Source: a virus
DNA length: 64,000 nucleotides
Virus record (IMG/VR): IMGVR_UViG_3300026851_000001
Reading direction: 5' to 3' (one strand)
Below, in pieces: positions 29,909 to 45,063 of the stretch. The position numbers and the translations under genes were made by a program. A model generated the notes under the pieces. It worked only from the letters and a program-made list of their open reading frames with translations. It searched no databases and was not told the origin of the DNA. Numbering within the stretch: position 1 is the first letter of the stretch; each line of letters begins with the position of its first letter.

Positions 29909-30287
29909 AGTCATCCTCTCCCCGCGATTCCGCATACGCCTGAGCCAGCGGCCTAACCAGGCCCTCAGCCATCTTGCGAGCGTCGTCTTTACTGACCAGC
30001 AGCCGAAGGGCGCCGGATGCTTTGTCGATATCGCCGGCCAGTACGTTGCGCAGAACTTGGCCAAGCGCGCCGTCGTAGTCGTGGCCGTCGTTGTATTTGG
30101 CTGCTACGTGCTCGGCCATGGCGTCTTCAAGCTGCTTGACCTGTTCCTCAACGCGCTTGCCTGCGACATACAGCGTGTCTTCGATCAGGTCATCTACTGC
30201 GCCGGCAAGCCAGTTTTTGCCCTCGGCGGTATCAAGGAACTGGTCAGGCTGGAGGTGGAACATGGGTTGGCGTAGGGCTGCGCTCAT
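29901..30287 (-). CDS. Hypothetical protein
   Basis: 128 aa; coupled. Confidence 0.65.
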   Translation of the reverse strand: MSAALRQPMFHLQPDQFLDTAEGKNWLAGAVDDLIEDTLYVAGKRVEEQVKQLEDAMAEHVAAKYNDGHDYDGALGQVLRNVLAGDIDKASGALRLLVSKDDARKMAEGLVRPLAQAYAESRGEDDYE

Positions 30288-30607: not shown

Positions 30608-30683
30608 TGGGGCAACGAACGGGACTCGAACCCGTGACCTATCGGTTATGAGCCGACTGCTCTACCTGCTGAGCTACCGTTGC
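30608..30683 (-). tRNA. tRNA with CAT anticodon (Met or Ile2), 76 nt
   Basis: GCAACGG/TCGTTGC acceptor, GCTC/GAGC D-stem, CTCATAA loop, TTCGAGT T-loop, encoded CCA. Confidence 0.85.
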
Positions 30684-30742
30684 AAAAAGGCCGCGGGGAG
30701 CGGCAATAGGGTGGTGCGGTAGAGGGTATTGGTGGTGCGACC

Positions 30743-30815
30743 TGGGAGCCTGGCGGGACTCGAACCCGCTATTCCTCCCTCTCGGGTAGACGCTCATCCA
30801 TTGGCGTTCAGGCTT
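30743..30815 (-). ncRNA. Degenerate tRNA-like element
   Basis: Perfect T-arm GCGGG-TTCGAGT-CCCGC and AGCCTG/CAGGCT acceptor, but the anticodon arm is broken. Confidence 0.55.
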
Positions 30816-30855
30816 TTCACTGCGTCCAGTGCAGGACGCACCCCAATACCCTCTT

Positions 30856-30991
30856 CAGATGACATCGGTTGATGGATGGCCGGTGCTAAGTCTCTTGGCT
30901 AGGCCATGGGTCAGGCGGCAGACATGCTGCGCACTCGCTACCCTTTGCGATGGATTGCTCCACGGTCAGCATCCATCACCGATGCCATCTG
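30856..30991 (-). ncRNA. Candidate multi-branch structured RNA
   Basis: About 22-bp closing stem with one G-U and one bulge; internal TGGA-GCAA-TCCA hairpin. Confidence 0.45.
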
Positions 30992-31013
30992 CCCTGCTAG
31001 GCAGGGCGGCGGG

Positions 31014-31397
31014 TTATGTGCCGTAGTCGATTGCAACAATTTTTTCGCTGTACCAGCCGAACGAATTTGCTTTGTGCTCTGCGGGGATCGAGTAATCAGG
31101 GCGTTCGCAAAAGGCCTCGACGTCAAACGCAAGAAACTCGTCGTCTGTAAGTACTCTTGCCCGTCGCATAACAACCATCCAGCCGCCAGGAATCGACCAA
31201 ACAACAGGGCAAAGCCCAGGGAGATTCGCGGCTGAAAGACTCGCCTCCTGCATGTTGGCGAGAAGACCGCACAGGAATAGCTTCCAACTCCAAAGCGCCG
31301 GAACCTTTATGGCGAATCTGCCAGCGAGGATTACATGTCTTGTCGCGCCTTCATTGTTGATGCTTATCCTGCGCAATGCGGCTGCAGCCGTGCTCAT
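31014..31397 (-). CDS. Minimal protein-kinase-like fold protein (putative)
   Basis: GATRHV..FAIKVP, VVMRRA, EHKANSFG and IVAIDYG in kinase motif order. Confidence 0.6.
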   Translation of the reverse strand: MSTAAAALRRISINNEGATRHVILAGRFAIKVPALWSWKLFLCGLLANMQEASLSAANLPGLCPVVWSIPGGWMVVMRRARVLTDDEFLAFDVEAFCERPDYSIPAEHKANSFGWYSEKIVAIDYGT

Positions 31398-31454
31398 CTC
31401 TATCTCCTATTGCCCTACGGCGTTAGATGGTTGTTTCCATTTTGGAAATAACCA

Positions 31455-31694
31455 CTAACGCCTTGGATTTATTACTGCTGCAGGGTGAGCCATAAGGCGA
31501 TCCAGCGTTACGCCGTTCAGCAACCTATCGAGCCCAGCTAGCCTCCCCTGCAATGTTGATTTGTGGTCAATTTTCAGCATTGAAGGGCCAGCATCTATGC
31601 GAGCCGAGTAGTCGCCATCCACAAAAAATAGAGCGCAATACTCGGTAGATTTTGTTAGCCCCTTGTAAATTTCGATTCGCGTAATTTGCGGCAT
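31455..31694 (-). CDS. Hypothetical protein, AT-richer, flanked by a 14-bp direct repeat
   Basis: SD AGGAGG; 79 aa. Confidence 0.6.
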   Translation of the reverse strand: MPQITRIEIYKGLTKSTEYCALFFVDGDYSARIDAGPSMLKIDHKSTLQGRLAGLDRLLNGVTLDRLMAHPAAVINPRR

Positions 31695-31761
31695 CCCTAC
31701 CTCCTATTGCCCTAAGTCGTTAATCACCGATGCGAACCCTAAGCGCGCATGGGTGAAAGTG

Positions 31762-32626: not shown

Positions 32627-32668
32627 AATATAGGCATGCCTGTTTTTATCGTCAACAGGAAATCCTAT
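32627..32668 (-). promoter_or_regulatory. pL promoter with OL operators
   Basis: TTGACG-17-TATATT (32655 to 32627); ATAGGCATGCCTGT at 32630 and ACAGGAAATCCTAT at 32655. Confidence 0.75.
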
Positions 32669-33874: not shown

Positions 33875-34621
33875 TCAGAGGCCGCCTTTCCCGCTCTTGT
33901 CCCGCACGCGGCCGATTATGGTGATGTGTTCCTGAGCGACATCGGCGGCGATGTCTTCAATGGGGTAGGCCTGGTTATCGCTGACCAGGCGAAGGCTGCC
34001 GTCCAGCTTCTTGAACAGCCGCTTGATGCGTAGATCGTTGCCGTAGCGCAGAGCGTAGACCTTGCCGTCGATGATCTTGGCCGGCTCGTTTTCTTCCATG
34101 TTGACCAGCACAGAATCGCCGTCGAATAGCGTCGTCTCCATGCTGTCGCCCTTAACCCTGAAGCGCTTGCACTTCTCGGGCTTAATGCGCTCGGCACGGA
34201 ACCACGAAAGCTTGTAAATCGCCGGGTCCGATTCCTCAATGATCTCGTACAGCGCCTGGTGTCCATTTCCGGCTGAGAAGTTCACTTGATACTCGCTTAT
34301 GGCAACGGCATCTTCTGGCAGTTGGTCTTCTGGGTCGTAGGCCTGGACGTTTCCAGAGCCTGCCGGCTCGAAGCCCTTCATTTCTTTGTTATGAACGGCC
34401 AGCTCAAGGCGAACCGGAATCATGGGGCCGGTGCCGTTCTCCAGCCATATAGCGCTCACGCCGCAGTTCTTGGCGATGCTGGCGTTGTATGAGGAGGAGG
34501 CAGATTTTCCCCTCTCCAGATCGGAGATTGAGGTCTGAGTTATCCCCACGCGCTGAGCCAGCTCTAGCTGGGAAAGCTTGGCGTGCTTGCGTGCTTGCTT
34601 CAATCGGTCTTTGTATTCCAT
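33875..34621 (-). CDS. cI: CI-like repressor (HTH plus S24 peptidase)
   Basis: LSQLELAQRVGITQTSISDLERG HTH; VKGDSM and IKRL catalytic motifs. Confidence 0.95.
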   Translation of the reverse strand: MEYKDRLKQARKHAKLSQLELAQRVGITQTSISDLERGKSASSSYNASIAKNCGVSAIWLENGTGPMIPVRLELAVHNKEMKGFEPAGSGNVQAYDPEDQLPEDAVAISEYQVNFSAGNGHQALYEIIEESDPAIYKLSWFRAERIKPEKCKRFRVKGDSMETTLFDGDSVLVNMEENEPAKIIDGKVYALRYGNDLRIKRLFKKLDGSLRLVSDNQAYPIEDIAADVAQEHITIIGRVRDKSGKGGL

Positions 34622-34633
34622 CCCCCGATTCTC

Positions 34634-44909: not shown

Positions 44910-44985
44910 GCCGCTATAGCTCAGCCGGTAGAGCGCCTGCCTTGTAAGCAGGATGTCCTGGGTTCGAAGCCTGGTGGCGGCACCA
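44910..44985 (+). tRNA. tRNA-Thr (TGT)
   Basis: Full cloverleaf, CCTGC-CTTGTAA-GCAGG, A73 and CCA. Confidence 0.93.
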
Positions 44986-44988
44986 TTT

Positions 44989-45063
44989 TGGCGAGTAGCA
45001 CAGTGGTAGTGCTCCCGGCTGTTAACCGGGCGGTCGCAGGTTCGAATCCTGCCTTGCCAGCCA
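44989..45063 (+). tRNA. tRNA-Asn (GTT)
   Basis: Full cloverleaf, CCCGG-CTGTTAA-CCGGG, G73 and CCA. Confidence 0.93.

Follow-up and report, generated by a model that had tools for sequence, protein, structure and literature searches.

The 136-nt RNA encoded on the minus strand at 30991-30856 of a 64,000-nt stretch of viral DNA (IMGVR_UViG_3300026851_000001, hereafter the window) is a genuine non-coding RNA module. Sequence comparison shows the element to be a composite and not one family: its stem is reused around other contents, and its insert can be exchanged. Wrapper and cargo move independently, in both directions. We lean slightly towards the view that the insert is functional cargo, predicted to be released by RNase III.

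A stem-bracketed RNA in a leftward early operon

The phage genome is circular and comprises 51,728 bp, which the window reads 1.24 times (exact repeat at that period). Its best DNA relatives are D3-like temperate phages of Pseudomonas. The element is part of the leftward early operon, where it is flanked by a gene of 127 codons that ends at 31014 and by another that ends at 30284, and a cI-like repressor gene (33875-34624) is located upstream of the promoter of this operon. A candidate promoter at the head of the operon (Table 1) presumably supplies the transcript that carries the element. The element sequence is identical in two independent assemblies, JGI and Logan (L002, L003), which rules out an assembly artefact.

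Table 1. Positions of the element, its parts and neighbouring features in the window
Feature	Position	Strand	Basis or remark
Sigma-70-like promoter, head of leftward early operon	32627..32655	-	consensus match only
7-bp junction hairpin after upstream gene	30991..31007	-	widespread in Pseudomonas temperate phages
Closing stem, 5' arm; carries 5' half of RNase III consensus	30970..30991	-	folding, homologous loci
Insert (cargo), 91 nt; 30958-30879 homologous to P. aeruginosa phage inserts	30879..30969	-	sequence/model comparison
GNRA-capped hairpin, P 0.84; missing from all homologous inserts	30951..30962	-	folding
Hairpin whose GGGUA loop is conserved; a single compensatory change vs homologues	30935..30950	-	homologue alignment
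4-bp hairpin; A-U here vs G-C in homologues (compensatory); loop 5 to 28 nt	30918..30930	-	
Invariant strand UGACCCA; able to pair with GGGUA loop	30907..30913	-	homologue comparison, folding
Conserved 17-nt 3' block; remnant of T-arm-like hairpin of wider frame family	30879..30895	-	homologues
Closing stem, 3' arm, one bulged A	30856..30878	-	folding, homologous loci
Second cassette, 18-bp stem around tRNA-like unit	30721..30854	-	RNase III register same as unit 1
Intrinsic-terminator-like hairpin and U-run after cassettes	30684..30704	-	same in L184
tRNA, CAT anticodon, third slot	30608..30683	-	ARAGORN/Rfam; different tRNA in L177

The stems, GNRA loop and hairpin described in the original prediction are all present on the minus strand. 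The bracketing stem of about 22 bp proposed there, with a G-U pair on this strand only, comprises 22 pairs, of which one is a G-U that would be an A-C mismatch on the opposite strand. A single A is bulged, and the stem encloses 91 nt. No long-range stem of the phage is longer than this closing stem, and the neighbouring cassette (30854-30721) has the second longest. In 12 shuffled genomes, the longest stem reached 17 bp and none had at least 19 bp. The whole element folds with a z-score of -4.6 (0/200 shuffles as stable) and its reverse complement folds equally well (z -5.2), while the insert alone is no more stable than its shuffles (z +1.6). Hence, folding energy supports the closing stem only. 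Because both strands fold equally well, assignment to the minus strand is based on operon direction, G-U pairs and homologues.

The original prediction also held that no credible ORF crosses the region, and this agrees with the comparison of related loci. A 28-codon ATG ORF (30972-30886, minus strand) starts inside the closing stem and is kept in no relative: slot-mates show a stop after 4 codons or a different reading, and homologous inserts lack an ORF start and differ by non-triplet indels. A small protein gene was rejected, given the start buried in the stem and the non-conserved reading frame.

The perfect 7-bp hairpin noted ahead of the element is real, but it is a common junction in early operons of Pseudomonas phages and no conserved part of the RNA. 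It was found in 49 viral contigs, where it is followed by protein genes in most cases and by RNA cassettes in some. It is thus a marker of an exchange junction that lies outside the RNA proper. A BLAST search with the element against 50,697 phage records matched this hairpin and nothing else, and a scan of genome contigs with it returned mostly chance matches and one Pseudomonas sequence.

Downstream, the second cassette contains a tRNA-like unit (about 30814-30743) with a T-arm, CCA and an irregular anticodon arm, for which ARAGORN makes no call. The 3' 27-mer of this unit has no viral match. In the contigs L177 and L188, the stem of the second cassette encloses another T-arm-bearing insert. 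After the terminator, the window and L177 carry a full tRNA. In L184, L153, L123 and L183, its place is taken by no more than a mini-helix of 5 bp that closes a loop of 4 nt; in L184, CCA follows the mini-helix. The mini-helix is a collapsed tRNA gene.

Some further observations concern the surrounding genome. A tRNA-Thr and tRNA-Asn pair is encoded at 44910-45063 on the rightward (plus) strand, and other D3-like phages have this pair as well. Two 31-nt copies that are 87% identical (31395-31425 and 31692-31722) span the ribosome-binding sites of successive early genes and also occur in L153; these repeats are likely exchange points for gene cassettes. Furthermore, two records deposited as Leptolyngbya phages (PP438408, OP828577; L026) contain DNA 85% identical to this Pseudomonas-type early operon, and their host assignment may be doubtful.

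Constant arms and exchangeable inserts

The same arms occur, letter for letter, in L123 and L153, both of them Pseudomonadaceae genomes, and in the six viral contigs L177, L182, L183, L184, L185 and L188. Within these identical arms, the inserts measure 73, 92 and about 203 nt and are unrelated to the 91-nt insert of the window or to one another, with pairwise z-scores of 3 or less between types and 11 or more within a type. The slot itself is equal across the stem-sharing loci, with the hairpin before and a terminator-like site after it, and several of them share the same ribosome-binding site and the same downstream genes. The original prediction had placed the element as a second stem-bracketed module in an array of RNA units at 30.6-31.0 kb. 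This arrangement recurs in L177, which repeats the order of stem 1, stem 2, terminator and tRNA with different content in each, and L177 and L188 both have the three-slot array with contents unlike those of the window in all slots. Stem 2 of L177 differs from its counterpart in the window by G-U and compensatory changes, and L184 combines stem 1 with a third stem type. Five stem types align on one RNase III anchor with paired changes.

The insert is likewise found in another wrapper. A search with only the hairpin retrieved L062 and L066, in which a stem of 20 bp, unlike that of the window, encloses an insert of 92 nt; about 75 nt of this insert align colinearly with the insert of the window at roughly 70% identity. 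The homology persists without the 3' 17-mer search word (local score 39 vs 17 +/- 3; reached by 0/3000 shuffles). A profile built only from homologous inserts ranks the window locus first in the phage (E 0.008), and a covariance model from the same inserts scores it with 24.2 bits on the minus strand, the next hit scoring 10.8. Two subtypes (L062 and L106 types) are distributed over 24 viral loci. Named P. aeruginosa phages carry the insert too, LESphi3, MD8, TC7 and Ab31 among them (12 records with at least 80% coverage), and the LESphi3 copy is unannotated and lies in the same operon. The window insert joins this family by colinear motifs and helices; a GGGUA-loop hairpin, GUGC, a 4-bp hairpin, UGACCCA and the 17-nt 3' block are kept in all inserts. 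The insert pattern has no match in 401 Pseudomonadaceae genomes, the insert model yields coding-sequence noise only in 151 genomes, and five related proviruses gave no match. Phage FBPa47 (L162:601-636) has lost the 5' half by deletion and retains only the 3' stem arm with the 3' portion of the homologous insert. A 17-nt stretch of the window insert (30890-30906, minus strand) is similar (z about 3) to a segment of the L184 insert, to which the window insert is otherwise unrelated; this is possibly a recombination patch.

Regarding the inner fold, the predicted interior stems are present, but the TCGC/GCGA stem is backed by homologues only. When the window sequence is folded by itself, this stem gives way to a GGGU/ACCC pairing (P 0.71) as the preferred nested helix; in the consensus fold of the insert family, the same pairing would be a pseudoknot. 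UGACCCA and the GGGUA loop might form a pseudoknot or an alternative fold. Natural variants L107 and L151 each lose one GGGU/ACCC pair without compensation. Covariation among the collected homologues gives the proposed structure little support: there are two clear compensatory changes, but the homologues represent three lineages only and the GNRA hairpin, which is private to the window copy, is not conserved. The two changes fall in one insert helix each, alongside several G-U changes, and both are contributed by the window sequence, so that with three lineages the shuffle count of 1/500 overstates the support. MAFFT misaligned the insert types, and the model-based alignment used here is biased towards its own structure. 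The idea of a repeated CUGACC hairpin was rejected, as patterns built on that repeat and the GNRA hairpin matched at chance level only.

Most other inserts in these stems have a D-arm-like hairpin at the start and a T-arm-like hairpin at the end. The loops of the two hairpins are complementary over 5-6 nt and co-vary (L043, L046, L123, L184), apparently a kissing interaction that replaces the tRNA elbow. More than 200 records of phages from Pseudomonas, Klebsiella, Escherichia and other genera contain this frame, which frequently lies close to tRNA genes. The 5' D-arm-like hairpin starting with AAUGCG is present in five other inserts of the same stem and absent from that of the window. From the 3' T-arm-like hairpin ending in CACCGGC, the window insert retains the 3' strand and the loop only; the 5' stem strand is eroded here and the hairpin is intact in the P. 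aeruginosa homologues. As only the 3' part of the frame is kept, the window insert is a derived relative of the frame family, no typical member and not tRNA-shaped. In Klebsiella phage Magnus (L159, about 1050-2700), an ORF-poor stretch contains a frame RNA and several further structured units, and is annotated only with very short hypothetical proteins.

Predicted RNase III release and competing readings

A weak consensus for RNase III has been published (PMC4357697). In vivo, sites with G-C pairs separating the two cuts and with A-U in the fourth (D) position are preferred (PMC6212723); these rules were derived for the E. coli enzyme. With 22 bp and one bulge, the closing stem has the length of about 20 bp or more that is required. 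The consensus is matched at 6/7 positions on each arm in units 1 and 2, and at 6 and 7 positions in stem 2 of L177. By chance, 3.6% of random 22-nt arms attain 6/7; the arms of a stem depend on each other, and the stems themselves are possibly paralogues. In all three stems, the cut offsets fit the geometry of a 2-nt 3' overhang. In agreement with the in vivo preferences, both pairs that separate the predicted cuts are G-C, and A-U occupies the fourth position. Cuts are predicted between 30979 and 30978 on the 5' arm and between 30867 and 30866 on the 3' arm, which would yield a product of 112 nt (30978-30867) closed by 9 bp; the predicted product of the second cassette also measures 112 nt. 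The P. aeruginosa stems fit the consensus less well in the homologous register. The match is therefore good but not conclusive evidence that the stem would be cut.

Based on these data, we slightly favour the following mechanism. The early leftward transcript would carry a row of RNA cassettes, and host RNase III would cut both arms of the 22-bp stem. The released RNA of about 112 nt would be kept closed, and thus protected, by its 9-bp helix. We infer that the array units are transcribed, cleaved and stable. The stem would then serve as a reusable wrapper and the insert as functional cargo, which phages would exchange via recombination in the constant arms. The cargo of the window is a form without the D-arm-like hairpin and with little left of the T-arm-like stem, but it has kept several invariant single-stranded motifs. 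It would probably act in trans, early in infection or upon induction, and might do so by folding and binding a protein of host or phage as a decoy or aptamer, although we propose protein binding only tentatively.

Alternatively, the stem itself could be what matters, as a signal for RNase III that works in cis: cleavage would open up the early message, stabilise upstream cistrons and free tRNA precursors, and the insert would be a decaying passenger with no task of its own. The invariant arms around wholesale-swapped inserts, the frame features missing from the window copy and kept by five slot-mates, the broken copy without its 5' half in phage FBPa47 and the lack of stability of the insert alone agree with such a signal. 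However, a simple hairpin would suffice for this purpose, two insert helices show compensatory changes, and short insert motifs are kept over diverged phages and two wrappers while linker lengths vary. We thus regard a pure cis signal as unlikely. A small self-cleaving ribozyme that aids processing of the array would account for the invariant unpaired motifs and the possible pseudoknot, and phage tRNA arrays do host ribozymes, as exemplified by theta ribozymes. Yet no Rfam ribozyme model matches the element at E up to 10, the cores of hammerhead, HDV-like, twister, pistol and hairpin ribozymes are not recognisable by inspection, and the wrapper already provides a processing route, which together leave self-cleavage with hardly any probability.

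The released RNA might also be an antisense regulator like DicF, P1 C4 or P4 CI. P1 C4 and P4 CI are tRNA-like, processed phage RNAs, DicF offers a precedent in an equivalent operon, and variable cargo would fit variable targets. The searches, which covered the own phage and, for the conserved 3' block, 41 Pseudomonadaceae genomes and whose reach ended above short seed pairing, argue against this: the longest complement in the own phage is 15 nt (shuffles 12-17), and a complement of the block occurs in 2/41 genomes as in the control (2/41). Moreover, the element has no terminator or U-tail of its own and no Rfam C4 match. Antisense regulation is thus distinctly improbable. An antitermination or attenuation element in the nascent transcript, like HK022 put, would act on the terminator 150 nt downstream, and a terminator-like site indeed follows the cassette or cassettes in the window, L123, L153, L177 and L184. 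In P. aeruginosa phages, however, the insert copies directly precede a ribosome-binding site and gene, and unrelated inserts share the slot, which a polymerase-binding RNA would not tolerate. This makes antitermination very unlikely. Release of a functional cargo by RNase III remains our preferred reading, and a protein-binding shape is favoured over antisense pairing because of the conserved unpaired motifs, the length-variable linkers and the lack of an antisense target above chance.

More speculatively, the cassettes could constitute a modular RNA 'moron' system in which RNase III wrappers deliver exchangeable aptamers or decoys against host proteins, the insert family being one effector. 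Candidate host proteins would be tRNA-targeting or RNA-sensing defence enzymes. Accessory functions of phages are catalogued almost wholly as proteins; if the cassettes are processed in the predicted way, lambdoid phages carry swappable small RNA effectors that annotation has missed. The locus offers exact predicted cut sites and a defined cargo family in two wrappers, and the cultured phages LESphi3, MD8, TC7 and Ab31 hold the same cargo.

Relation to known RNAs

The family was not recognised in the original prediction, and in line with this Rfam 15 contains no family that matches 30856-30991, even at E 10. Across the window and 19 homologous or related loci, Rfam detects tRNAs only, at gathering as well as E-value level. 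The element itself is negative with ARAGORN and RF00005, and its insert has no T-loop consensus. Visual inspection also suggested motifs of group I introns, hairpin ribozymes, ToxI and TPP, but these were rejected because the likeness covered too few nucleotides or the motif order was wrong. A literature search, with most subscription papers outside it, found no description of the element or its arrangement.

DicF is a small RNA from the dicBF operon of the Qin prophage that is released by RNase III with RNase E (10.1101/2023.04.14.536235). The element resembles it as a small RNA within a repressor-controlled prophage early operon with release by RNase III, which is predicted for the element. 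In DicF, RNase III cuts once, on the upstream side, and the RNA has a terminator of its own and works through antisense pairing, whereas the stem of the element brackets both sides and its content is exchangeable; the two share no sequence likeness, and no target above chance was found for the element. YrlA (RF02553) is similar in having a long closing stem and tRNA-derived features and in occurring in phages. The element is not a Y RNA, however. Y RNAs of this kind combine a T and a D module, in permuted order, with a Ro-binding stem, whereas the insert contains no T/D module, and YrlA has no match over the element; a weak match of the YrlA model (20.7 bits, gathering 69) lies further downstream, on the tRNA and the T-arm of unit 2. 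RNase III stems of pre-rRNA, the T7 early sites and the lambda N leader comprise about two helix turns and bracket structured RNA, as does the stem of the element. Compared to these, the element encloses a short, swappable cargo, and its cleavage is predicted from sequence.

The T4 species 1 and 2 RNAs (rnaC and rnaD; NC_000866), the function of which is unknown (PMC12685909), share no sequence with the element, and the insert covariance model has no match at the T4 locus. The closing stem of rnaC is short and its T-loop canonical; the element shows neither feature. Nonetheless, rnaC and rnaD are likewise structured phage RNAs, of 120-140 nt, encoded beside tRNA genes, and the cassettes described here may bear on the function of such stable phage RNAs.
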